Below are positions 6,582-63,346 of a stretch of DNA of 64,000 nt, in pieces (the stretch's first letter is position 1; the number at the start of each line of letters is the position of its first letter). The notes beneath the pieces are model-generated. The model made no database searches, was not told the origin of the DNA, and worked only from the letters and a program-made list of their open reading frames with translations. Source of the stretch: Nannocystis pusilla. GTDB lineage: Bacteria > Myxococcota_A > Polyangia > Nannocystales > Nannocystaceae. The DNA lies in NCBI RefSeq assembly GCF_049060185.1, contig NZ_JBMEQO010000002.1. One strand, written 5' to 3'. The translations under genes were made by a program, and so were the position numbers.

Positions 6582-7839
6582 GTGCACGCCCGCGATCCCG
6601 AGCTCTCCGCCGCCGACCCCGAGATCTTCGCGCTGATCGAGCAGGAAGACGCGCGCCAGCGCGACAGCCTGCGCCTCATCGCCAGCGAGAATACGTGTCG
6701 AAGGCCGTGCTCGCCGCGACCGGCACCAGCCTCACCAACAAGTACGCCGAGGGCTACCCGGGCAAGCGCTACTACGAGGGCATGGACTTCGTCGACCCGA
6801 TCGAGTCCCTCGCCATCGCCCGCGCGCGCGAGCTGTTCGGGGCCGATCACGCCAACGTCCAGCCCTACAGCGGCTCGCCGGCCAACCTGGCCGCGCTGCT
6901 CGCCCTGTGCCAGACCGGCGACACCATCATGGGGCTGGCTCTCCCCGCGGGCGGTCACCTCACCCACGGCTGGAAGGTCAGCGCCACCGGCATCTACTAC
7001 AAGGCCGTCCAGTACGGCGTCCGCCGCGACGACCACCGCATCGACCTCGACGAGGTCCGCAGCCTCGCGCTCGCCAACCGGCCCAAGCTCATCTGGGTCG
7101 GTCACTCGGCCTACCCGCGTCAGCTCGACTTCGCCGGCTTCGCCGCGATCGCGCGCGAGGTCGGGGCCTACCTCGCGGCCGACATCGCGCACATCGCCGG
7201 CCTCGTCGCCGGCGGCGCGCACCCGAGCCCCGTGCCGCACGCCGACGTCGTCACCACCACCACGCACAAGACGCTCCGCGGCCCGCGCGGGGCCTCATCC
7301 TCAGCAAGGCCCAGCACGCGGCCGCGATCGACAAGGCGGTGTTCCCCGGCCTGCAGGGCGGCCCGCACTGCCACACCACCGCCGCCAAGGCCGTCGCCTT
7401 CCGCGAGGCGCTGCAGCCGAGCTTCCGCGACTACGCCCACCAGATCGTCGCCAACGCCCAGGCCCTCGCCGAAGCCCTGATCGCCCGCGGCCACGTCCTC
7501 GTGTCGGGCGGCACCGACAACCACCTGCTGCTCCTCGATCTCACGCCCACCGGCCAGGGCGGCCGCCACGTCGCCCGCGTGCTCAACCGCTGCGGCATCG
7601 AGCTCAACGCCAACGCCATCCCGTTCGACCCGCGCAAGCCGTTCGATCCCTCGGGCCTGCGCATCGGCCTGGCCGCCATCACCTCGCGCGGCATCGAGAC
7701 CCATCACATGCCGGTCGTCGCCGACCTCATCGCCGACGGCATCGCCCTCGCCGTCGAGAACGCCGACGAGGCCCGCTGCGAGGTCCACCGCGGCCGCGTG
7801 CGCGAGTTCCTGCGCGCCTTCCCGGCGCCCGGCCTCTGA
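6582..7839 (+). CDS. glyA: Serine hydroxymethyltransferase; two frameshifts (~6690, ~7285)
   Basis: The three frames join through [18 protein letters not shown], then [28 protein letters not shown], then [14 protein letters not shown] and [10 protein letters not shown]. The GTG start is at 6582. Confidence 0.88.
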
Positions 7840-7863
7840 TCGGCCGCGCCGCCCTCGCCGTCA

Positions 7864-9043
7864 TGCAGCCGTACCCCATCACCGCCATGGCCCTGTGCAA
7901 CGGCATGGGCGACAGCACCGCCGCCGTGCTCGCCGCCTTGCGTGCCGGTCGCTCCGGCCTCGGCCCGTGCCCCGCCGAGTTCGAGCTCGACGCCGTCGTC
8001 GGCGCCATCCCGACCCCGCTGCCGCCGCTGCCCGGCTTCCTCGGCACGGTCCGCGACACCCGGCAGGCGCGGATCGCCGCGGTCGCCCTGGCCGAGCTGC
8101 AGGCCCCGCTGGACCGCGCGCGCGCCCGCTGGGGCTCGGACCGCGTCGCCATCGTCCTCGGCACCAGCACCGGCGGCATCGAGGCCAGCGAGACCGCCTA
8201 CGCGCACGCGCAGGCCCACGGCGGCGCCCTCCCGGCCGACTACGACGTCGAGACCTCGCACGCCCTCGACGCAGTCCTGCACGTCGCTCGCGTCCTCGGC
8301 GGCGGCCTCGGCGGCCCGGCCTACGTCGTCTCGACCGCCTGCTCCTCCTCCGCCAAGGTGTTCGCCTCGGCCCAGCGATTGCTGGCCGCCGGCCTGTGCG
8401 ACGCGGTCCTGCTCGGCGGCGTCGACAGCCTGTGCCGCCTCACCGTGCGCGGCTTCGCCGGCCTCGAGGTCCTGTCCTCGCGGCCATGTCGCCCGTTCTC
8501 GAGCGAGCGGGCCGGCATCAACATCGGCGAGGGCGCCGCGCTGCTCCTGGTCGAACGGACAGGTGACGGCCCGGCCCGCCTGCTCGGCGTCGGCGAGAGC
8601 TCCGACGCCTACCACATGACGAGCCCGCACCCCGAGGGCCTCGGCGCGCGCATGGCGATGGAGCGCGCGCTCCGGCACGCGGGCCTCGGCGCCGCCGACG
8701 TCGACCACGTCAACGCCCACGGCACCGGCACCAAGCAGAACGACAGCATGGAGAGCGCGGCGATCCGGGCGGTGTTCGCCGGCGCCCCGCGCCCGCGGTG
8801 GTCGCCACCAAGGGCTACACCGGGCACATGCTCGGAGCCGCGGGCGCCACCGAGGTCGCCTTCGTCGTCGACGCCATCGCCGGCGGCTACCTGCCCGCCA
8901 GCGTCGGCGCCGATCCGCTCGACGACACCCTCGCGATCGACGTGGTCACCGCCCGCCGCGACGTCCCCACCCGCGCCGCGCTCAGCAACTCGTTCGCGTT
9001 CGGCGGCAGCAACTGCAGCGTCCTCGTCGGAGGCCCGGCATGA
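7864..9043 (+). CDS. Beta-ketoacyl-ACP synthase (FabF/FabB-like KS); frameshift near 8790
   Basis: Motifs are VVSTACSSS (active-site Cys), HMTSPHPEG, NAHGTGT, GYTGHMLGAAG and SNSFAFGGSNCSVLV. The TGA at 9041-9043 lies inside the first copy of an 18-bp direct repeat. Confidence 0.85.
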
Positions 9044-9139
9044 GCGCCTGCGCTTCCGGACATGTTCATCGGGACATGTCCCGATGTTCATCCTCCCCGC
9101 TGCCCGCCGCCCGCACCTTCCGAGGCCCGGCATGAGCGC
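9030..9139. mobile_element. 74-bp palindromic MITE/REP-like insert (9048-9121) flanked by a perfect 18-bp direct repeat GAGGCCCGGCATGAGCGC (9030-9047 and 9122-9139)
   Basis: The direct repeat is exact. Copy 1 carries the KS stop (TGA). Copy 2 carries the CLF ATG. The insert contains GGACATGTTC-atc-GGGACATGTCCC-GATGTTCATCC. Confidence 0.7.
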
Positions 9140-9935
9140 GCTCGCCTTCACCGTCCGCGGCCTCGGCTTCTGGACCCCCGGCTACCCCGACCTCGCCGCT
9201 TGGCGGGCCCGGCCCGACACCTGGCCCGAAAGCCAGGCCCCTCCGACCGAGCCGGCCGCCCCCAAGGCCGAGCTGCTGCCGCCGATGATGCGCCGGCGCA
9301 CCAGCCTGCTCACCCGCATGGCCGCCGAGGTCGCAGCCCAGGCGCTGCAGGACGGCGGCCTCGACCGGGCCGCGGCCACCCTCGTGTACGGCTCCGTCTA
9401 CGGCGAGATCCGCACCACCCTCGACCTCCTCGCCGCCTTGCTCGTCGCCGGCGAGCCGCTGTCGCCGACCAAGTTCCACAACAGCGTCCACAACACGGCG
9501 GCCGGCTACGTCTCGATCGCCACCGGCAACCGGGCCGGCAACGCCGCGCTGTCGGCCGGCCGCAGCACCCTCGCCATGGGCCTCGTCGAGTGCGCCGCCC
9601 TCGTGGCCGCCGGCGAGGGCGACGTCGTGCTCGTGATCGCCGAGGAGCCGCTGCCCGAGCCGCTGGCCGCCGGCCGCCGCTGGGACCCGTTCGCCGCCGC
9701 CTTCGCCCTGTCGGCGCCTGTCCCCGGCGACATGCCCGTGAGGACATGTCGCCTCGAACATGGCGCGAATGACATGCTCCCCGCGCCACGCCCGCTCCCG
9801 GCCGCCCTGGCCGCCAACCCCTGCGCCGCCGCGCTCGCGCTGATCGAGGCGCTGGCCGCCGGCGCCCCGGCGCGGATCGCCCTCGAGCCGCACCTCGCGA
9901 GCGGCTGGCAGTGCACGCTCGGAGCCGGGGCATGA
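9132..9935 (+). CDS. KS-like chain-length-factor type protein (beta-ketoacyl synthase N-domain, no active-site Cys seen)
   Basis: It reads MSALAFTVRGLGFWTPGY...TKFHNSVHNTAAGYVSIA. This is typical of the KS partner (CLF) in aryl-polyene/type II systems. Its stop overlaps the DH start (ATGA). It carries an internal GDMPVRTCRLEHGANDML stretch that coincides with a palindromic element. Confidence 0.7.
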   Translation: MSALAFTVRGLGFWTPGYPDLAAWRARPDTWPESQAPPTEPAAPKAELLPPMMRRRTSLLTRMAAEVAAQALQDGGLDRAAATLVYGSVYGEIRTTLDLLAALLVAGEPLSPTKFHNSVHNTAAGYVSIATGNRAGNAALSAGRSTLAMGLVECAALVAAGEGDVVLVIAEEPLPEPLAAGRRWDPFAAAFALSAPVPGDMPVRTCRLEHGANDMLPAPRPLPAALAANPCAAALALIEALAAGAPARIALEPHLASGWQCTLGAGA

Positions 9936-11104: not shown

Positions 11105-12304
11105 ATGCACGACGTCCTGATCGTCGGGGCCGGCCCGGCCGGATCGACCGCCGCCAACTTGCTCGCGCAGGCGGGCGTCCGGGCCGTCACGCTCGACAAG
11201 GACGTGTTCCCGCGCTTCCACATCGGCGAGTCGCTGCTGCCGATCGACCTGCCGATCTTCGCCCGCCTCGGCGTCGCCATGGATCGCACGAGCTGGCAGT
11301 TCAAGCAGGGCGCCGAGTTCATCGACGAGCGCACCGGCGAGTTCGCCTTCTTCAGCTTCGCCGACGGCCTCGAGGGCACGCCTCCGCATGCCTGGCAGGT
11401 CGACCGCGCCGCCTTCGACACCATGCTGTGCGACGTGGCGAAGAGCCGCGGCGCCGACATCCGCTTCGGCGAGCGCGTGCGCGACATCGAGTTCGCCGAC
11501 GATCACGTCCGCGTCGTCACCGACCGCGAGGAGCACCGGGCCCGCTTCCTCCTCGACTGCACCGGCCAGGACGCCATGCTCGGCCGCGGCGCCCGCACCA
11601 TCGCCCCGCTGCACGAGCTCGGGCGCGCCGCCGTCTTCTGCCACTTCGACAACCTCTCGCCCGAGGTCCGCGCCGAGCTCGGCGAGCAGGGCAACATCAA
11701 GGTGCTGATCGTCGAGGACGGCTGGCACTGGCTCATCCCCATGCACGGCGGTCGGCTCAGCGTCGGCCTCGTGAAGTGGCGCGGCAAGCTCGACGACGAC
11801 GCCTTCGAGGCCGCCCTGGTCGCCTCGCCGTTGTGCCGCCGGCTCACCGCCGGGGCCACCCGCAGCGCCTCGCGGACGATCCGCAACTGGAGCTACAAGA
11901 ACACTCGCCCCTCCGGCCCGCGCTGGGCCTGCGTCGGCGACGCCTGCGCATTCCTCGATCCCGTGTTCTCCTCGGGCGTCTCGCTGGCGATGCTGGGCGC
12001 CGAACGCACCGTCGACCTCCTCGTCCCGGCGCTCGCCGAGGGCCGCGAGGCTGCGGCCGATCTCATGGCCCCGGTCCACGCCACCATGCAGGTCGCCTAC
12101 GACAGCTTCGAGCAGCTGATCCGCCGCTTCTATCACACGCGCCTCGTGTCGCACCTGTTCTTCGCCCGCACGCCCGACCCCCGGCTGCGGCGCGGCCTCA
12201 TCAGCATGCTCGCGGGCGACGTCTGGCGCGACGACAATCCGTTCCAGGACATGCTGCGAAGCTCTCGAGTGCAGCCGCAGCGGGTCACCGCCCCGAGCGA
12301 GTGA
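11105..12304 (+). CDS. Flavin-dependent halogenase (tryptophan-halogenase family)
   Basis: It has the FAD-binding motif GAGPAGS and the halogenase signature EDGWHWLIPMHGG (WxWxIP). The ORF is intact. Confidence 0.8.
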   Translation: MHDVLIVGAGPAGSTAANLLAQAGVRAVTLDKDVFPRFHIGESLLPIDLPIFARLGVAMDRTSWQFKQGAEFIDERTGEFAFFSFADGLEGTPPHAWQVDRAAFDTMLCDVAKSRGADIRFGERVRDIEFADDHVRVVTDREEHRARFLLDCTGQDAMLGRGARTIAPLHELGRAAVFCHFDNLSPEVRAELGEQGNIKVLIVEDGWHWLIPMHGGRLSVGLVKWRGKLDDDAFEAALVASPLCRRLTAGATRSASRTIRNWSYKNTRPSGPRWACVGDACAFLDPVFSSGVSLAMLGAERTVDLLVPALAEGREAAADLMAPVHATMQVAYDSFEQLIRRFYHTRLVSHLFFARTPDPRLRRGLISMLAGDVWRDDNPFQDMLRSSRVQPQRVTAPSE

Positions 12305-13697: not shown

Positions 13698-14054
13698 GGC
13701 CTGCCCCATCGGACATGTCCTGGCGCGCCTGTCCTCGAGGACACCCGGTTCCTCCGCCTGACCGCTCACGCGCCCCCATCGTCAGCCGGGTCGTGCTGAC
13801 CTCCTGGCGTCTACGTCCTCGAGCACACCTGTCGCGGCCATACGCCGGACGCCTCACGCGCTCGCAGCATCTGCTCGGCAACGCCGATGCTGTCCACGCG
13901 AACGGTTCACGAGCACTGGCCACGTCATGGCGTGTCTGCTCGCAAGAGACACCCCGTCGCCCGACGGCTCACGCGCTCGCAGCGTCCGCTCAGCCAGGCC
14001 GACCCCGTCCGGACCCGCTTCTCATCCCCGGTCGCGTGCAGTCGCACGCCTGAC
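13698..14054. repeat. Repeat-rich convergent intergenic region with GGACATGTCC-type palindromes plus direct repeats
   Basis: At 13715-13733 it reads CGGACATGTCCTGGCG. At 13738-13749 it reads GTCCTCGAGGAC. CTCACGCGCTCGCAGC units lie 115 bp apart (13853 and 13968). Confidence 0.7.
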
Positions 14055-15943: not shown

Positions 15944-15995
15944 CCCCGCCGTCGACGCCGCCTCCGCCTGTCTCTTCGCGCAGGCCCTTTAGAAC

Positions 15996-16725
<730 letters not shown>

Positions 16726-18641: not shown

Positions 18642-19837
18642 CCGTTGCGATGGGCCGCGCCGACACCCCGCTGCCGGCCGAAGTCGACGTCGCGGTGATC
18701 GGCGGCGGCATCATGGGCCTGGGGCTCGCCTACCACCTGGCCCTGCTGTCCGGCGGCAAGGGCAAGCCGCCGCTGTCGGTCGCGGTCATCGAGCGCAGCT
18801 ACCTCGTCAGCGGCGCCTCCGGGCGCAACGGCGGCGGCGTGCGCATGCAGTGGGGCGACGCCGGCAACGTCCGCTTGATGATGGACAGCATCGAGCTGTG
18901 CAAGGACCTCGCGCAGCAGCTCGGCATCAACTTGTGGTTCCGCCAGGGCGGCTACCTGTTCCTCGCTCGCACCGAGGCCGGCGAGCGTCGGCTCGAGCGC
19001 AACGTCCAGCTGCACGGCGAGGTCGGGGCGCCGACCCGCCTGCTCACCGCCGCCGAGGCGCAGGCGATCGTCCCCCAGCTCGACGTCGCCGAGGTCCGGC
19101 TCGCCACCTTCAACCCCGAAGACGGCGTCGTGTTCCCGTGGGCCTTCGTGTGGGGTTACGCCGCCAAGGCCGTCGAGCGCGGCGTCGTCCTGCGCACGCA
19201 CACCAGCGTCGTCCGCGTCGAGCCGCTGGCCCAGGGCTTCGCGCTGCACCTGCACACCGGCGAGGTCGTGCGTGCGCGCCGGGTCGTCAACGCCACCGGC
19301 GCGTGGTCGGGCGCGCTCAACCGCCAGCTCGGCATCGACCTGCCCAACCGCCCGCACCGCCACGAGATCCTCTCGAGCGAGCCGCTCAAGCCGTTCCTCG
19401 ATCCGCTGGTCGTCGATCTCTCGAGCGGCCTCTACTTCTCTCAGAGCACCCGCGGCGAGCTCGTCACCGGCATCAGCCTGCCCGACGCGCCCGACGGCAG
19501 CGACGAGAGCCTCACCCTCCACTCCAGCCTCCGCTTCCTCACCCACCTCAGCGCCACGCTCACGCGCCTGATGCCGATCACCGCGGCGATGAAGGTCCTG
19601 CGGCAGTGGGTCGGTCCTTACGACGTCTCGCCCGACGGCGACGCGATCGTCGGCCCCAGCCCCGGCCACCCCGACTTCATCCAGGTGTGCGGCTTCACCG
19701 GGCACGGCTTCATGATGGCGCCCGCGGTGGGTCGGCTGCTGGCGCGCTGGCTCGCCCTCGGCGAGACCCACCCGATGCTGGAGCGCTGGTCCCCGGGTCG
19801 CTTCACCGCCGGGGCGTCGCCCGCCGCGAGGACATGA
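18638..19837 (+). CDS. FAD-dependent oxidoreductase subunit (HcnC/SoxB/DAO-like)
   Basis: It reads DVAVIGGGIMGL and GASGRNGGGV. It reads H.HGF at the C-terminus. Confidence 0.7.
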   Translation: MTVAMGRADTPLPAEVDVAVIGGGIMGLGLAYHLALLSGGKGKPPLSVAVIERSYLVSGASGRNGGGVRMQWGDAGNVRLMMDSIELCKDLAQQLGINLWFRQGGYLFLARTEAGERRLERNVQLHGEVGAPTRLLTAAEAQAIVPQLDVAEVRLATFNPEDGVVFPWAFVWGYAAKAVERGVVLRTHTSVVRVEPLAQGFALHLHTGEVVRARRVVNATGAWSGALNRQLGIDLPNRPHRHEILSSEPLKPFLDPLVVDLSSGLYFSQSTRGELVTGISLPDAPDGSDESLTLHSSLRFLTHLSATLTRLMPITAAMKVLRQWVGPYDVSPDGDAIVGPSPGHPDFIQVCGFTGHGFMMAPAVGRLLARWLALGETHPMLERWSPGRFTAGASPAART

Positions 19838-20233: not shown

Positions 20234-21049
20234 ATGGAAGTGACTTTCTGGGGCACCCGGGGCAGCATTCCAGTTTCCGGGCCGCGGTACGCAGAGTTCG
20301 GCGGCAACACGCCCTGCCTTCAGATTTCGCTCGAGAGCACGACGGACACCGTCATCCTCGACTCGGGCTCGGGCATCCGTGAGCTCGGCATCCGCCTCGT
20401 GCAGACTCGAGCCGCGCACTCGCGGGTCATTCACCTGTTTCTGACCCACGCTCACTGGGATCACATCCAGGGCTTCCCGTTCTTCCCGCCGGCCTTCATG
20501 CCGGACTTCCGGCTCCACATCTACTGCACGAAGGACGCGCGAGCGGTCCTCGACCGGCAGATGTCGACGCCGTTCTTCCCGGTCGGCCTCGACGTGATGG
20601 GCTCCACCAAGCTCTTCCATCACCTGCTGCCGCAGGAGGTCACGACGATCGCCGAGGCGACGCTGCGGCACATCCCGCTGCCGCACCCGCAGGAGAGCAC
20701 CGCGTTCCGCGTCGACGAGCGCGGCAAGTCGGTCGTGTTCGCCACCGACACCGAGCACGCGCCCGACCACATCAACGAGACCCTGCGGGACCTGGCCGAA
20801 GGGGCAGACGTCCTGATCTACGACGCCCAGTACACCTCCGAGGAGTACAGCGCCGGCAAGCAGGGCTGGGGTCACAGCACCTTCGCCGAGGCCGTCAAGC
20901 TGGCCCGCGCCGCCCACGTCGGCAAGCTCGTCCTCTATAGCCACGACCCGGCCCACGACGACGAGATGCTGCGCAAGATCGAGGCGGCCGCCCAGGAAGC
21001 CTTCCCCGGCACCGTCGCCGCCCGCGACGGCATGAAGCTGAAGCTCTGA
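20234..21049 (+). CDS. MBL-fold metallo-hydrolase
   Basis: It has the HxHxDH motif LTHAHWDHIQG. It reads DSGSG near the N-terminus. The ORF is intact. It is preceded by a 380-bp non-coding leader. Confidence 0.75.
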   Translation: MEVTFWGTRGSIPVSGPRYAEFGGNTPCLQISLESTTDTVILDSGSGIRELGIRLVQTRAAHSRVIHLFLTHAHWDHIQGFPFFPPAFMPDFRLHIYCTKDARAVLDRQMSTPFFPVGLDVMGSTKLFHHLLPQEVTTIAEATLRHIPLPHPQESTAFRVDERGKSVVFATDTEHAPDHINETLRDLAEGADVLIYDAQYTSEEYSAGKQGWGHSTFAEAVKLARAAHVGKLVLYSHDPAHDDEMLRKIEAAAQEAFPGTVAARDGMKLKL

Positions 21050-21054
21050 GCCGA

Positions 21055-21101
21055 CTGGCCGCCAGGACATGTCCTCGCGGCCAGCTCGGTGCCGACGTCC
21101 G
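21055..21101. repeat. 34-bp near-perfect palindrome centred on GGACATGTCC
   Basis: The sequence is CTGGCCGCCAGGACATGTCCTCGCGGCCAG. It lies between the MBL stop and the next start. Confidence 0.7.
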
Positions 21102-21116
21102 TCCGGCTGAGCTCGC

Positions 21117-21902
21117 ATGTCGCAGCACGAGATCGCAGACACCGTCGCCGACTCGGTGCGCGTGCTCCACGAGCACCACGGCGGCGACGACCACCGCGAC
21201 CTGTTCTTCGCGCTCTTCGCCTTCCAGGCCGGCTTCGACTGCGGCTTCACCCACGGGCGCGTGCTCGACATCCTGATCGCGCGGCGCTTCACCTACCGCC
21301 TGCCGATCACCGCGCACCCGCAGTTCGCCGCCAACAACCGCGCATTCAAGGGGGCGCCGCCGAAAGAGTGGCGCTTCGTGGACTCGGAGGTCCTCGGCCG
21401 CGAGCCGCCCGAGGACCGGCCCACTGTCGGTCACGAGAACGGTTACCTCCTGGAGGGCGCCCTGTACTGCGACGCCGGCACGCCGCTGTGGCACGAGCTC
21501 GCCGCCGCCGGGGTGCTGCGAGGCGCCGACGCCGAGCCGCCGCGGCCGCTGCCCCTCGGCAACGTCGCGCTGCAGGTGACGCGGGCGGCCGAGAAGGTCG
21601 ACGACCGCGACCTGATCGCCATGTGGATCAACTTCGGCCCGCGGATGCTGTTCCCGAAGACCCGGCACGTGCGCGAGGGCGAGGTGGTGGCCACGAACCC
21701 GTTTACCGGCAAAGCGATCGTCGCCCCCGAAGACTGCGTCATCCCGACCGACCCGACGGTCGCCGAGCTCACCGCCGTCCCCGACGCGGTCGCGCTGCGC
21801 GAGCTGGCCCGCCGCGTCGACGCCGTCCACGTCCCGGTCCACTACGACTACCGCCCGCCGCGCGAGCTCTGGTCCGAGGCCGACGCCTGGTTCTGGGGCT
21901 GA
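21117..21902 (+). CDS. Hypothetical protein
   Basis: It is an intact 261-aa ORF with locus-typical codon usage and no recognised motifs. Confidence 0.5.
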   Translation: MSQHEIADTVADSVRVLHEHHGGDDHRDLFFALFAFQAGFDCGFTHGRVLDILIARRFTYRLPITAHPQFAANNRAFKGAPPKEWRFVDSEVLGREPPEDRPTVGHENGYLLEGALYCDAGTPLWHELAAAGVLRGADAEPPRPLPLGNVALQVTRAAEKVDDRDLIAMWINFGPRMLFPKTRHVREGEVVATNPFTGKAIVAPEDCVIPTDPTVAELTAVPDAVALRELARRVDAVHVPVHYDYRPPRELWSEADAWFWG

Positions 21903-22089
21903 CCTGCGAGGCGCATTACCTGTCCCGAAGTTCAGGCCCGACGCGAGCGCTCGTGATCATCCTCGCCTCGCCCGCCCTGAACATTGACCGGCAGGCCGAC
22001 GCTGCTCGCAGCGCTCCCCGTCCCAAGGTTCAGGCCGACTCGAACGCTCGCCGAGACTCCTCCGCAGCGAAGTTACGCCTCGCGCCCGC
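21903..22089. repeat. Convergent intergenic region with two 24-bp direct repeats (GTTCAGGCCSGACKCGARCGCTCG) and CTCACGCG motifs
   Basis: The copies lie at 21930 and 22028, 98 bp apart. It shares CGCTCACGCG with 13765/13853/13968. Confidence 0.55.
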
Positions 22090-23397
22090 TCACGCGACCA
22101 GCCGACCGACCGCGAGCGGCCCCTCGGCGCGCTCGACCTCGATCTGCGTCGCCCGGCCGAGCAGCGCGTCGTCGCCGGCCGCCAGCACAGTCAAGCCGTT
22201 GCCGGCCCGACCGACCAGCAGCCCCGTCCGCCGATGTCGCGTCCGGTGCACGACCACCGGCAGGGTGCGCCCGATCTGCGCCGCCGCGAACGCCCGCTGC
22301 TTCGCCGCCGACAGCGCCCGCAACGCTGCCCCGCGCTGTTGCTTGACCGCCGCGTCGACCTGTCCCGAGAGACAGGCGGCATCGGTGCCCGCGCGCGGCG
22401 AGTAGGCGAACACGTGCAGGTACGCCAGCGGCAGCGCGGCCAGCAGCGCGTGCGTGGCCGCGAACGCCTCGTCTGACTCGCCGGGGAAGCCGACGATCAC
22501 GTCGGTGCCGACACCGATCCCCGGCACCGCCTCGGCCAGGCGAGGCACCAGCGCCTGCAGGTCAGCGGCAGTGTGCGCCCGCCGCATGCGCCGCAGCGTG
22601 TCGTCGTCGCCGCTCTGGACCGGCAAGTGGAGGTACGGACACAGCCGCGGATCCGTCGCCAGCAGCGTCACCAGGTGATCGTCGACCTCGTGCGGATCGA
22701 CCGAGCCGAGGCGCAGCCGGGCCGGCCCGAGCTGCGGCAGCAGCTCCGCGACCAGCGACGACAGCGTGCTGCGCGGCCGCAAGTCGCGACCGTAGATGCC
22801 GAGGTGCACCCCGGTGAGCACGACCTCCGGCACCCCGGCAGCGACCAACTCGTCCAGCTGCGCCCGCACCTCCGCGGGCGGCACGCTCACGCTGCGCCCG
22901 CGCACATGCGGCACGATGCAGAAGCTGCAGCGGTAATCGCAGCCGTCCTGGATCTTCAGGTACGCCCGGCTGCGCCGCGGGTCGGCGGCCGGACGCAGCC
23001 GGGCCGCGCGGACGCGCCGCAGCAGGTCGACCGGGGCCACGTGGATCTCCGGGACATGTCCCTCCGAACATGTCTCTCCGAGCACCTCGAACAGCCGCTC
23101 CTTCTCGCGGTTGCCGACCACCAGCGTCACCCCGGGCAGCGCCGCCGCCTCCGCGGGGGCGGCCGTCGCCCAGCAGCCGGTGACGACCACCTTCGCCCCG
23201 GCGCGCGCGGCCCGGCGCACGTGCTGGCGCGCGTCGGCGTCGGCCTCGTGGGTGATCGTGCAGGTGTTGACGATCACGACCTCGGGCGCGGCCTCGGCGT
23301 CGACCACGGTGTGGCCGGCCGCGCGGGCCATCTGCTCGAGGGCGTCGGACTCGAACTGGTTGAGGCGACAGCCGAGCGTGCTGAACGCGACGCGCAT
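22090..23397 (-). CDS. mtaB: MiaB-like tRNA methylthiotransferase (MtaB/RimO family radical SAM)
   Basis: It reads [18 protein letters not shown]...VIVNTCTITHEAD (MTTase N-domain). It has the radical-SAM motif CDYRCSFCIVP. The ORF is intact. Its start overlaps the kinase stop (TGATG). Confidence 0.85.
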   Translation of the reverse strand: MRVAFSTLGCRLNQFESDALEQMARAAGHTVVDAEAAPEVVIVNTCTITHEADADARQHVRRAARAGAKVVVTGCWATAAPAEAAALPGVTLVVGNREKERLFEVLGETCSEGHVPEIHVAPVDLLRRVRAARLRPAADPRRSRAYLKIQDGCDYRCSFCIVPHVRGRSVSVPPAEVRAQLDELVAAGVPEVVLTGVHLGIYGRDLRPRSTLSSLVAELLPQLGPARLRLGSVDPHEVDDHLVTLLATDPRLCPYLHLPVQSGDDDTLRRMRRAHTAADLQALVPRLAEAVPGIGVGTDVIVGFPGESDEAFAATHALLAALPLAYLHVFAYSPRAGTDAACLSGQVDAAVKQQRGAALRALSAAKQRAFAAAQIGRTLPVVVHRTRHRRTGLLVGRAGNGLTVLAAGDDALLGRATQIEVERAEGPLAVGRLVA

Positions 23398-28083: not shown

Positions 28084-28337
28084 ACTTTCGACATGTCCGC
28101 CAGGACATGTCCGATCATGCAGGGTCGTTCGGACATGTCCGAACGGCCCTCTCGGTTGCCGGGCGCTCGCCGCAGCCTTCACTTGAGAGCCGGGCTCGGC
28201 GCGAAAGCGACACGAGCAACCCGGCGGCCACGCCCCTCGATCGCTCGCGGCCTCCTGGGCGCGCGCCAGGTCGGGCCCCGAAGCAGCATGACCGCCAGGA
28301 CATGTCCTGGCGGTCACGCCTCGCGCGCGGGCGCGGC
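28084..28337. repeat. Cluster of four GGACATGTCC palindromic elements between convergent genes
   Basis: CGACATGTCC lies at 28090 and CCAGGACATGTCCGAT at 28101. A 20-bp perfect palindrome CGTTCGGACATGTCCGAACG lies at 28123-28142. A 28-bp perfect palindrome TGACCGCCAGGACATGTCCTGGCGGTCA lies at 28289-28316. Confidence 0.85.
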
Positions 28338-40799: not shown

Positions 40800-41260
40800 C
40801 GCCGTTCCCCGCGGTCGTTCTCCGACCTGTCTCTCCGGACATCTCGCGCGCTCCGGCCGCGGCTGTATTCAACCTGTCCCTTTGAACATATCGCGCTCCG
40901 ACCGCGCCATATTCGACCTGTCTCTCCGGACATACCGATCGCGCAGATCCACCCGTCATCGTTCAGGTGGATCCCTGCCCCTTCGGACATCCTCGAGGCG
41001 CGGCGCTCACCGGCTCGCCGCCTGTCCCTTCGGACATCCCATCTCCGCTCCCCGGGCGGCGCCTGCGCCTGCGTTCGCGGCTCGCCCGGTCCCTTCGTCG
41101 CCGGACCTGCGACTGTCCCCTCGCCTCGGTCTGCGCGACCTGCCGCGATTGCCGGGCGCGGTCCGGGGTCCAAGTTTGCCTGAACCCTGGATCACCGATG
41201 ACCACGCCAGCTCCGACCTCGGCCGCAGCGCGCTCGACCTGTCTCTACGACATGTCACCA
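40800..41260. repeat. Array of ~7 degenerate ~20-bp units (CGACCTGTCTCTCCGGACAT) plus a hairpin GATCCACC..GGTGGATC in a 490-bp non-coding gap
   Basis: Units lie at about 40826, 40871, 40914, 40982, 41022, 41104 and 41228. Spacing is irregular at 40-120 bp. Confidence 0.7.
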
Positions 41261-54372: not shown

Positions 54373-54382
54373 CCCTTCGAAC

Positions 54383-55863
54383 ATGTCCAAGAGCGCACCC
54401 GTCAAGAAGACCACCAGCAAGATCTGGGACAAGGTCAAGGACGTCGTCGACCCCGACCGCGCCCTCCAGGCCACCGTCGCCGCCGCCATCGAGGGCGTCG
54501 CCGTCCGCAACGTCCTCGGCATGGCGCCGGAGACGTGGAAGCCGGGCAAGCCGCTCAAGCTGCTGCTCGCCGGCTACGTCGGCACGCGCAACACCGGCGC
54601 CGACGTCCGCGTCGAGGAGATGATCCGCCAGCTGCGCCACGTCGTCGGCGACGACGAGCTCGAGCTGACGATCATGACCGTCGATCCCAAGTTGACGCGC
54701 GGCTACTTCCGCGCCGTCCACCAGATCGAGCTGCCGGCGGTGTTCCCCAAGTTCATCGCCACCGAGTGCCCGAAGCACCACGGCGTCATCGCTTGCGAGG
54801 GCTCGATGTTCAAGTCGAAGTTCTCGAGCGCGCTGACCTGCTTCATGGCCGGCGCGCTCGGCCTCGCCAACGCCGAGAACAAGGTCAGCGTCGGCTACGG
54901 CGCCGAGGCCGGCAACATGACCCCGGCGCTCCGCGACTTCGTGCGCGACGCCTGCAAGAAGTCGCTGGTCATCTGCCGCAACGAGCCCTCGCGCAAGGTC
55001 CTCGGCGAGCTCGGCATCCGCACCACCTCCGGGGCCGACACCGCCTGGACCTTCGACCCGGCGCCGCTGTCGCGCGGCGCCCAGCTCCTGCGCGACGCCG
55101 GCTGGGACGGCCGCCAGAAGGTCCTCGTCGTCTGCCCGATCAACCCGTTCTGGTGGCCGGTCAAGCCCGACCTGCTCAAGTACGCCGCCTACAAGCTCGG
55201 CGGGCAGTACAAGCACGAGCACTACAGCGCCTTCTACTTCCACCACCACAGCGAAGCGGCCGACAAGAAGTACAACGCGTATATCCAGGCCCTGGCCGAC
55301 GGCGTCAACGCCTTCGCCGCGGAGCGCGAGTTCTTCACCATCCTCGTCGGCATGGAGCAGCTCGACCGCCACGCCTGCGAGGACCTGCAGCCGCGCCTCG
55401 ATCGCGGCGGCGCGCTGTTCGTCAGCGACGAGCACGACATGTACGACCTCGTCAGCGTGCTGCGTAACTGCAGCATGATGGTGAGCTCGCGCTTCCACGC
55501 GATCGTCACCTCGATGCCCGGCCTCGTGCCCTCCGCCGGCGTCACCATGGACGAGCGGATCCGCAACCTCATGAACGACCGCGGCCACCCGGACATGTTC
55601 TTCGAGGTCGACGAGGAGGGCCTCGGCGAGAAGCTGCTGCACACCCTGCGTCGCCTGTGGCGCGACGCCGAGGGCATCAGCGCCGACATCGCCCGCGCCG
55701 TCCCGGCCCAGCTGAAGCTCATGGGTCAGATGGGCATCGACTTCATGGACGAGGTCGTCCGCGTCTACCCCGAGTTCCCGCGGCGCGACCTCCGCGCACC
55801 TGGGAAGCCCACCTGCCGCCGCTGCCGGCCAACGTGCAGCGCCTGCTGGAGCGCCACGCATGA
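54383..55863 (+). CDS. Polysaccharide pyruvyl-transferase-family protein; frameshift near 55800
   Basis: It is about 490 aa. The core reads VSSRFHAIVTSMPGLVPSAGV. The ATG sits inside GAACATGTCC. Confidence 0.55.
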
Positions 55864-62326: not shown

Positions 62327-63346
62327 ATGACTCGAGGGATTTGGCTGGCACTGGTCTGTTCGGTTGTGGCCTGTGATGTCGTCGATAACGACGTTCAAAC
62401 GGCGGTTACGCTGCGAAGCGACGTCGGTAACGGACTCGAGTTGAACTCCGCCGTGATGAACGGTCAGCAGTTCAACGGCATGCGCATGAACGGCATCAAC
62501 CTCAACGGGATGCGCATGAACGGTTGGACCATCAACGGGATCAACCTCAACGGCATCAACCTCAACGGCAGCAGCTTCTCGGCCACCATGGTCGTCGACG
62601 GCACTCCGGTTCAGGTGAGCGGCGACGACCTCATCGGCTCGCTGCTCACCCTAGAGGCCGGCACCGACACCTACGTCCTGCGCTTCGACGACATCTTCCT
62701 CGACCCGACCGACCCCGACGGCGACGTGTGGTTCTACGACATCGCCGTGCAGGACGTGGAGGCCGGCACCTGGTCCAGCCTCTGCTACGACCACCTCGGT
62801 CAGCCGACCCAGGCGATCGCCATCGGCAACTGGTGGGACGGCGTCACCGGCGACCGCAACGACGACGCCAGCGTCGTCACCTTCGCCTGCCGCGACGCCG
62901 TGCTCGCCAAGTGCGTCGAGTGGGGCTATCGCCCGTGGGCCACCGTCGGCGGCGTCTCCCTCGCCGATCACCACCAGGCGTGCACCCGGCTGGCCCGCGC
63001 CGACTACTGCGGCGACGGCACCCCGCACACCTTCAACGGCACGCCGATCGACGTGTTCGACGGCCTCAGCCCGGCGATCCAGGCCCCGGCCACCCTGACC
63101 ATGCAGAACTGGGGCATCGAGGCCGAGTGGGGCCCGGACGGCGCCGTCTGTGTCGGCGACCAGCGGCGCCTCAAGATGCTCGACGACGCCGGCGTCCCCT
63201 ACGAGTTCCCGACCTGCCTCGACGCCATCGACGACATCAGCACCTGCGGCGACTTCGACAGCGGCCGCGGCGGCCTCCTGGCCGATCGCTACTGCGACAA
63301 GTGGCAGTCCGACCCGGGCTCCTGCGACGGCTCCCAGCCGAACTGA
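62327..63346 (+). CDS. Secreted lipoprotein with pentapeptide-like repeats (xNGxx)x8 and ADYC domain
   Basis: It has a signal peptide and lipobox (VVAC). It has MNGINLNGMRMNGWTINGINLNGINLNG repeats. It reads LARADYCGDGTPHT. Confidence 0.65.
   Translation: MTRGIWLALVCSVVACDVVDNDVQTAVTLRSDVGNGLELNSAVMNGQQFNGMRMNGINLNGMRMNGWTINGINLNGINLNGSSFSATMVVDGTPVQVSGDDLIGSLLTLEAGTDTYVLRFDDIFLDPTDPDGDVWFYDIAVQDVEAGTWSSLCYDHLGQPTQAIAIGNWWDGVTGDRNDDASVVTFACRDAVLAKCVEWGYRPWATVGGVSLADHHQACTRLARADYCGDGTPHTFNGTPIDVFDGLSPAIQAPATLTMQNWGIEAEWGPDGAVCVGDQRRLKMLDDAGVPYEFPTCLDAIDDISTCGDFDSGRGGLLADRYCDKWQSDPGSCDGSQPN

Follow-up and report, generated by a model that had tools for sequence, protein, structure and literature searches.

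In a 64,000-nucleotide stretch of Nannocystis pusilla DNA (the window, G+C ~72%), a ketosynthase (KS) gene and a chain-length-factor (CLF)-like gene of an aryl-polyene-type cluster are parted by a 74-bp insert, which lies between two identical 18-bp copies of the gene junction. We read the insert, with high confidence, as an old, single and derived insertion. Between the two genes stands a small open reading frame (mini-ORF) that overlaps the KS stop codon at one end and the CLF start codon at the other, and the frame kept by seven insert alleles indicates that it is probably a frame-constrained relay ORF. The hairpin module inside the insert seems to belong to a family of palindromic repeats resembling REP elements. 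We hold this last assignment with a little less assurance, and likewise the account taken as a whole (old insertion, relay ORF and REP-like hairpin module).

The KS-CLF junction, empty and filled

The 18-mer, GAGGCCCGGCATGAGCGC, occurs at 9030-9047 (left copy, J1) and at 9122-9139 (right copy, J2), on the plus strand like every junction feature described here. There is no further exact copy in the window, where the next-best matches have three mismatches, and the bases flanking the two copies differ (g and c before, c and g after), so that the exact repeat is 18 bp long. J1 encodes the KS codons GGA GGC CCG GCA and the stop codon TGA at 9041-9043, ending the KS reading frame in ...SNCSVLVGGPA*, and contains an overlapping ATG at 9040-9042. 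J2 holds a Shine-Dalgarno remnant, GAGG (9122-9125), the CLF ATG (9132-9134) and a second TGA (9133-9135), at which the mini-ORF stops. A perfect 18-mer pair around a 74-bp element, with the last KS codons and stop in the first copy and the CLF start in the second, had been described in a first-pass annotation of the sequence; both copies, and what they contain, are confirmed by direct reading.

The insert (9048-9121) has the structure ctgcg-cttcc-GGACATGTTC-atcg-GGACATGTCC-cgat-GTTCATCCTC-cccgctgcccgccgcccgcaccttcc, and its 36-nt core occurs once in the window. The hairpin core, CTTCC-GGACATGTTC-atcg-GGACATGTCC-CGAT, spans 9053-9085, where unit 1 (9058-9067) pairs with unit 2 (9072-9081). It is followed by a third, degenerate unit in 14-nt register (GTTCATCCTC, 9086-9095), recognized in an alignment of 10 copies, and by a G+C-rich tail (9096-9121), which differs in length and sequence among lineages in an alignment of seven alleles.

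Orthologous junctions were retrieved via homologues of the CLF-like protein. The junction is empty in eight contigs from seven other lineages, namely N. radixulma, N. bainbridge, GCA_020073745 and five metagenome or read-set contigs (four more distant lineages). Each has the 18-mer once, in slightly varying form, with the two genes overlapping by ATGA or GTGA, and in every one of these relatives GGAGG precedes the ATGA by 6 nt. When the window was compared by BLAST with two of the empty loci (L001 and L002), the alignment stopped at 9047 and resumed at 9119, with the junction aligned twice. The insert is the sole indel above 30 bp in the aligned parts of the ~20 kb common to the window and the empty loci. 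Because relatives keep an empty site with one 18-mer, the insertion is real and derived, and the earlier proposal that the element entered a formerly single ATGA junction is borne out by these orthologues.

Seven filled alleles were compared, and the distance from the J1 ATG to the J2 ATG (the period) differs among them. It is 89 nt in RBIL2 and ILAH1, 92 nt in the window strain and in read set SRR26602169 (whose sequence differs from the window's), 122 nt in N. exedens DSM 71, 149 nt in N. pusilla Na p29, 179 nt in read set SRR28678144 and 209 nt in N. punicea FL3. Uncultured relatives are among those whose junction is filled by homologous inserts. All inserts have three 14-nt-register units and the duplicated junction in common, and the left end CTGCRCTTYC is common to all except one module, in the lineage of Na p29 and locus L003. 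The core module is single in the window, RBIL2, locus L164 and N. exedens, and is present as two tandem copies in Na p29, L003 and N. punicea. The interior is strongly diverged in sequence, with insert lengths of 74 to 191 bp across alleles; the mean column identity of the core is 80%, and the tails are unalignable.

The junction copies are far more uniform. In J1 the Na p29/L003 lineage alone departs, with CCG>CCC, which is synonymous, and with one base after the stop; J2 departs by a single base, in N. exedens only. In every allele J2 keeps GGAGG or GAGG 6 nt upstream of its ATG. Since J1 and J2 are near-identical while the insert has diverged, the perfect 18-mers are best explained by purifying selection on two functional junction copies rather than by youth.

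The first-pass annotation had taken the exact repeat as a sign that the family is, or recently was, transposable; a recent date for the insertion is contradicted by these alleles. The N. pusilla group, N. exedens and N. punicea are ~5-7% apart in DNA and carry the same insertion, which is therefore not recent, being common to several diverged lineages and strongly diverged in its interior. Over 5.9 kb of a neighbouring locus, filled taxa differ by 2-7% among themselves, and the empty N. bainbridge and N. radixulma stand at 8-13%. In a quartet analysis of the same 5.9 kb, 82% of bootstraps join N. exedens with N. punicea against N. bainbridge with N. radixulma, which favours monophyly of the filled taxa, though not decisively. 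A 1-kb neighbour-joining tree of the CLF region speaks against a single gain without loss, as it nests the empty N. bainbridge within the filled group; if that placement is right, one precise loss is also needed.

Comparison of these alleles indicates the following course. A hairpin module of ~55 bp entered the KS/CLF ATGA overlap in an ancestor from which N. punicea, N. exedens and the N. pusilla group all descend, and the same event duplicated at least 18 bp of the junction, probably ~26 bp. From then on, to judge by conservation, J1 was held by selection on the KS C-terminus and stop codon, and J2 by selection on the first codons of CLF with their ATG and Shine-Dalgarno sequence. Inside the insert there has been drift, with segments gained and lost, and in two lineages a tandem doubling.

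The reading frame across the insert

The ATG in J1 is the ancestral CLF start codon. The original GGAGG (9029-9033), which lies in the 3′ end of the KS gene and served as the ancestral CLF ribosome-binding site, still stands upstream of it and now belongs to the mini-ORF. This ATG opens an ORF of 31 codons plus stop (MSACASGHVHRDMSRCSSSPLPAARTFRGPA*, 9040-9135), whose TGA lies in J2 and overlaps the CLF ATG, so that a 4-nt ATGA overlap is found at either end. The mini-ORF is open in all seven alleles with 4-nt overlaps at both ends, and the period is always 2 mod 3. The tree calls for no fewer than five independent net changes in length, of 3, 30, 30 and twice 57-117 nt, and each is divisible by three, as a relay demands. 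That five changes should all be so by chance has a probability of ~(1/3)^5 = 0.004. In two other variable intergenic regions of the same genomes, lengths are random mod 3.

The frame between two separate genes would otherwise have no reason to be conserved, which suggests that the gap is translated and that ribosomes pass from KS to CLF by termination and reinitiation through the mini-ORF. Ribosomes ending KS at TGA 9041-9043 would restart at the overlapping ATG at 9040 by means of the original GGAGG. They would then translate a meaningless relay ORF of 30-70 codons through the hairpin, stop at TGA 9133-9135 and restart at the overlapping CLF ATG at 9132. KS and CLF would thereby stay coupled although a spacer of 88 nt parts the KS stop codon from the CLF ATG. 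The first-pass annotation had held that the insertion preserved coupling; the duplication did retain the KS stop and the CLF start with its Shine-Dalgarno sequence, whereas translational coupling itself only plausibly survives.

A scan of ~400 kb for bridging ORFs that overlap genes at both ends found the KS-CLF junction and one unrelated case. The latter, a mini-ORF in a distant metagenome-assembled genome (MAG; L020, 2895-2951), was ruled out as a related relay, having neither a junction duplication nor the hairpin motif.

Several points weigh against a relay. The J2 Shine-Dalgarno sequence could start CLF alone, making the relay dispensable. The alleles are phylogenetically related, and the mod-3 argument draws on about five events. 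In the G+C-rich insert all three frames are largely stop-free, so openness alone carries little weight. Finally, a spacer at 21047-21117, between co-directional genes, measures 70, 229 or 199 nt by species, in each case 1 mod 3; as a candidate for a second frame-conserved spacer it was rejected, as no bridging ORF is open and the agreement is probably coincidence, and it thus illustrates that small samples can mislead.

Taken together, these points would fit a bridging ORF that is a by-product, with CLF starting independently from the Shine-Dalgarno sequence and ATG in J2, which have GGAGG or GAGG at the same 6-nt distance in every allele, and with a common frame due to coincidence or ancestry. 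We find this unlikely, though it keeps some weight. The period stays at 2 mod 3 across six lengths and at least five net changes, the other two variable intergenic regions have no mod-3 regularity, and the relative frame of separate genes needs translation across the gap in order to be conserved.

The hairpin module, its probable repeat family and the origin of the duplication

The predicted RNA fold of the window hairpin has an energy of -16.2 kcal/mol (z = -3.6), and all nine copies that were folded give the same hairpin at -8 to -16 kcal/mol. Among 10 homologous copies, 81% of cells are paired, versus at most 50% when the partner is slid. RNAalifold yields the same helix of unit 1 with unit 2; the outer CTTYC pairs with GAAG, and one pair alternates between U-A and G-C. 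Covariation in the hairpin is weak, with 37 of 500 shuffles reaching the observed score, a point against the account as a whole. The hairpin is followed by GATGTTCATCC, with no T run as in an intrinsic terminator, and a scan of 8700-9400 found no terminator-like or promoter-like site. A search of Rfam with 8800-9400 at E up to 1 gave nothing but one chance miRNA match, and with the whole window no match at gathering score. The hairpin might protect mRNA 3′ ends, direct processing or be bound by a protein.

Unit 2 of the hairpin is a frequent motif. In the window, GGACATGTCC has 11 exact and 10 one-mismatch copies, versus 0 and 2 in three shuffles, so that motifs of this type (up to one mismatch) are enriched ~11-fold. 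Their spacing has a sharp 14-nt periodicity, with 28, 15 and 10 pairs at distances of 14, 28 and 42. The enrichment is found in the cultured Nannocystis clade only, and not in MAGs at 73-76% protein identity or in other Nannocystaceae. Copies usually lie 5-52 nt past stop codons and point the same way as the gene before them (for example at 13711, 21065, 21921, 28089-28154, 28298 and 42840), a few are inside coding sequence, and most occupy orthologous positions in seven species. A marker common to the insert, TGTCC-N4-RTTCA, which in the window's insert is formed by the end of unit 2 with GTTCATCCTC as TGTCC-N4-GTTCA and defines a sub-family, occurs three times in the window versus 0.03 in shuffles. 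On this evidence the insert module appears, on balance, to be a member of a REP-like family.

Against such membership, it is judged from a core of ~35 nt, and no full-length paralogue of the insert turned up in the sequence searched. An nhmmer profile of six copies found none in the window and Nannocystis loci (~350 kb), and blastn-short against the window and all Nannocystis loci matched only ~12-35 nt of the palindromic core elsewhere. A metagenome scan with CNTGTCCCNNNNTTCATCCTC (16 specified bases) gave at least 120 chance matches, and among the matches listed none fits the element profile. In the literature, no described palindromic repeat family of Nannocystis or of myxobacteria was found.

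As for the duplication, similarity between the copies extends beyond the 18-mer. Left of J2, 9 of 14 bases in RBIL2 (CGTCG adjacent; background p 0.011) agree with the end of KS, as do 8 of 14 for the Na p29/L003 lineage (CCTCGTC, a run of seven; background p 0.037). The original duplication was thus probably longer than 18 bp, about 26 bp.

This similarity also favours an origin by simple tandem duplication across the junction, after which the unselected interior would have decayed and the family hairpin would have been acquired or reached by convergence, leaving the 18-mer as a selected remnant. Such a duplication would be neutral, as neither the KS stop nor the ribosome-binding site and start of CLF is lost, and the boundaries of the repeat do match these functional constraints. 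Tandem duplications of gene ends or hairpin modules are found elsewhere in Nannocystis (L028 11777-11902, L013 4752-4854 and L011 5557-5737). In local alignments of each insert with the flanks on the KS 3′ and CLF 5′ sides, for which 2000 segments of the window served as controls, the N. exedens tail resembled a KS 3′ segment (p ~0.001), as did N. punicea less strongly (0.03). However, the KS-like stretch of N. exedens is not collinear, matching 55-104 nt upstream of the junction, and the N. punicea match is not collinear either. The window, L003 and L164 inserts are at background, the hairpin core has no similarity to CLF 5′ or KS 3′ sequence, and G+C-rich sequence of low complexity inflates such matches. 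We therefore give a tandem origin a minor share of the probability, and prefer the entry of a hairpin module.

One of the tandem cases merits description by itself. At 11777-11902 of Nannocystis MAG L028, the last ~26 nt of an acyl-CoA dehydrogenase gene with its stop codon stand in three tandem copies, which could be either a real duplication of junction type or a long-read assembly artefact.

The first-pass annotation had regarded the exact duplication as the signature of a mobile element and the family as transposable now or recently. In its strongest form, a palindromic element resembling MITEs (transposable elements of the miniature inverted-repeat kind) would have transposed recently, its transposase making an 18-bp target-site duplication. 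Filled and empty sites do differ by exactly the insert and one junction copy, the core motif is a multi-copy, lineage-specific family, and some family modules differ in copy number among close strains. On the other side, the insertion predates the split of several species, and the perfect repeat is explicable by selection alone. The ends of the insert are not complementary (start CTGCGCTTCC, end CGCACCTTCC, reverse complement GGAAGGTGCG), so there are no terminal inverted repeats. In ~400 kb of Nannocystis DNA there is neither a near-identical copy nor another family copy with a flanking direct repeat; a search for exact direct repeats of at least 12 bp flanking motif arrays, in the window and 14 loci, gave no other convincing case. 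Conservation of most family copies at orthologous positions in seven species is a further point against a recent transposition.

The length of the duplication bears on the enzyme as well. Bacterial insertion sequences usually make target duplications of 2-14 bp. A classical transposase target duplication is unlikely because at least 18 bp, and probably ~26 bp, lies beyond this range. We consider recent MITE-like transposition improbable, and the claims of mobility drawn from the repeat are not supported.

The observed length need not typify the family, because at an overlapping junction only a duplication of the whole stretch from Shine-Dalgarno sequence to ATGA could survive. It is conceivable, and we put it forward as a speculation that is more likely wrong than right by a wide measure, that, since selection froze both copies, the junction is the one place still showing the insertion footprint of the REP-like family, whose modules would insert after stop codons while duplicating 18-26 bp or more. 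Such insertion could use widely staggered nicks or a template switch, and at other sites, in non-coding DNA, the long footprint would be lost to decay without notice. Overlapping gene junctions would then be open to the family, which could settle there by making relay ORFs under frame constraint. If it is true that the footprint shows the insertion mechanism of the family, it bears on how REP-like repeats spread.

The palindromes might instead be sites for a DNA-binding protein (operator or nucleoid type), with the insert an intra-operon regulatory site. The perfect 10-bp palindromy of GGACATGTCC, its enrichment and its restriction to the lineage would suit this, as would the conservation of some coding-region copies (9714-9793 and 23044-23075) and the move of the window/RBIL2 allele towards consensus in both units. 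But the copies follow stop codons instead of standing upstream of genes, a 14-nt register is unusual for dimeric operators, and 8700-9400 holds no promoter-like site found by scanning. Stems vary by locus while hairpin potential is kept, including a compensatory change at 28287-28316 in N. exedens. We regard binding sites as a poor explanation, and a REP-like hairpin family as the better one.

Several arrays of the motif, or of similar form, were seen away from the junction. Within the CLF-like gene, CATG recurs every 14 nt at 9714-9793 (L001 10572-10635) in an array of this motif type. The array, coding for ...GDMPVRTCRLEHGANDM..., is found in all Nannocystis orthologues, and its peptide (DM..RTCRL) is conserved down to ~61% identity in an otherwise variable loop. 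The array could be an ancient in-frame repeat insertion. At 23044-23075, a two-unit array, GGACATGTCC ctcc GAACATGTCT, occurs in all seven species (orthologues near 6770-6810 in L010-L015) and apparently lies in minus-strand coding sequence (...LGETCSEGHVPEIHV...). Its units are very like those of the window/RBIL2 insert allele, for which gene conversion or convergence towards the family consensus is a possibility.

Some post-stop modules vary between strains. Past the stop codon at 21900-21902, the region 21903-22085 contains one to three copies of a module, GGCGCATCACCTGTCCCGAAGTTCAG (L010 5660-5805; L011 5550-5815), whose copy number and position vary among three strains just 2-2.5% apart, that of the window, RBIL2 and Na p29; the Na p29 copies form a tandem array with a period of ~64 bp. 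In N. punicea, and there only, the post-stop hairpin of window 21056-21079 is found as an exact 37-bp tandem duplication with a 66-bp period (L013 4752-4854). Seven species conserve a hairpin, GACCGCCAGGA-CATG-TCCTGGCGGTC, at 28287-28316 between two genes that seem to converge; its compensatory change in N. exedens pairs C>T with G>A. Having no T-run, this hairpin is no classical terminator.

Other repeats are less closely related in form. A 44-bp tandem repeat of 2.5 copies at 40823-40934 contains a degenerate motif, GACCTGTCTCTCCGGACAT, with an extra copy 320 bp downstream (41234-41249). At 15992-16001 and 54379-54388, the ATG within a GAACATGTCC motif is apparently a gene start codon; the two genes begin M-S-L-T-P-D-D... 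(which aligns with an Ala_racemase_N-family gene of L001) and M-S-K-S-A-P-V-K-K.... The more distant MAG L028, which lacks GGACATGTCC enrichment, has at 19315-19587 units of ~50 bp with a hairpin GCTGTCC-TTCG-GGACAGC and then ATGCCC. A coding repeat with a 15-nt period at 62456-62583 (~5.5-8 units, ...AACGGCATCAACCTC...) suggests a protein of pentapeptide-repeat type.

The genes around the insert were identified by a Pfam scan that covered three proteins of the cluster. The KS gene (7863-9043), by three-frame translation and after frame correction, has PF00109 and PF02801. The downstream ORF (9132-9935) has PF13723 (Ketoacyl-synt_2), which is of CLF type, and its product is identical to WP_421059651.1 of Nannocystis pusilla by exact look-up. 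The gene after it encodes an ApeP-like dehydratase. A 1-nt deletion near 8789, relative to strain RBIL2, breaks the KS frame, and deletions of 1-2 nt also break glyA, the dehydratase and a ketoreductase. The breaks lie in 6582-7839 (glyA, for which three frames are needed) and at 8789, 10138 and 10412, some of them within runs of one base or of GC repeats. The window has the look of an indel-rich assembly of long-read, unpolished type, with the deletions read as assembly errors and not as a run of pseudogenes. For all these gene-breaking deletions of 1-2 nt, the insert is not an artefact of an error-rich assembly, a notion with next to no probability, because filled junctions recur in independent assemblies from eight other genomes or read sets: N. 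exedens (also ERR2215890), N. punicea, RBIL2, ILAH1, Na p29 (also ERR2215891) and three more read sets.

Relation to known repeat elements

The KS and CLF products probably work as a heterodimer, by analogy with known pairs. Their genes offer a natural multi-allele experiment on translational coupling, in which an insertion parted a gene pair by 88-205 nt and seven alleles keep the upstream stop and the downstream start joined by one reading frame. There is also a warning as to method: a perfect flanking repeat is no proof of recent transposition if both copies are under selection.

The closest parallel is with mycobacterial interspersed repetitive units (MIRUs), which insert at start codons and have an internal ORF coupled at -4 nt to the downstream gene (review PMC12548453). 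In Nannocystis too, a short repeat lies between co-directional operon genes, in gene orientation, where KS-CLF orthologues overlap by ATGA. The internal ORF is likewise coupled at -4 nt to the downstream start, and here ATGA overlaps both ends in all seven alleles. Supply et al. are said to have reported in 1997 that the MIRU ORF overlaps the upstream stop as well. Insertion therefore has little effect on expression in MIRUs, and would have little here; in both systems copy number differs by strain, with one or two modules here. The present case would extend the relay-ORF solution of MIRU type to Myxococcota and to a palindromic repeat family.

The two systems also differ. MIRUs belong to Actinomycetota, and from the phylum and the palindromic structure a sequence relationship with a myxococcal element is not expected; the likeness is drawn from description. 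The Nannocystis unit is a hairpin-forming palindrome, and a clear duplication of the host junction supplies both overlaps. It is the only relay-type insertion found in ~400 kb; relay insertion is not shown to be a habit of the family.

REP, BIME and REPIN elements of Gammaproteobacteria, such as the malE-malF REP, are similar in being short imperfect palindromes that are lineage-specific and present in many copies. They occur singly or in arrays, mostly just past stop codons and also within operons, have RNA hairpin potential and mostly keep orthologous sites. In contrast to these, the Nannocystis unit is itself a 10-bp palindrome in a 14-nt register and lacks a conserved 5′ tetranucleotide of GTAG type. 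We know of no REPs with long flanking target duplications, nor of any that are read as coupled ORFs.

MITEs, such as the Correia elements of Neisseria and ERIC, share with the insert a small, non-coding, structured and co-transcribed form and the existence of filled and empty sites. Unlike them, the insert has neither terminal inverted repeats nor a short, fixed target duplication (such as TA), its duplication being at least 18 bp, and there is no near-identical full-length set in the ~350 kb of sequence available. Rickettsia palindromic elements (RPEs) are comparable in another respect, as palindromic repeats tolerated in translated sequence, and related 14-nt arrays do lie in frame inside the CLF gene and another gene. 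Whereas RPEs join the host protein, the Nannocystis insert forms a separate mini-ORF between two proteins.

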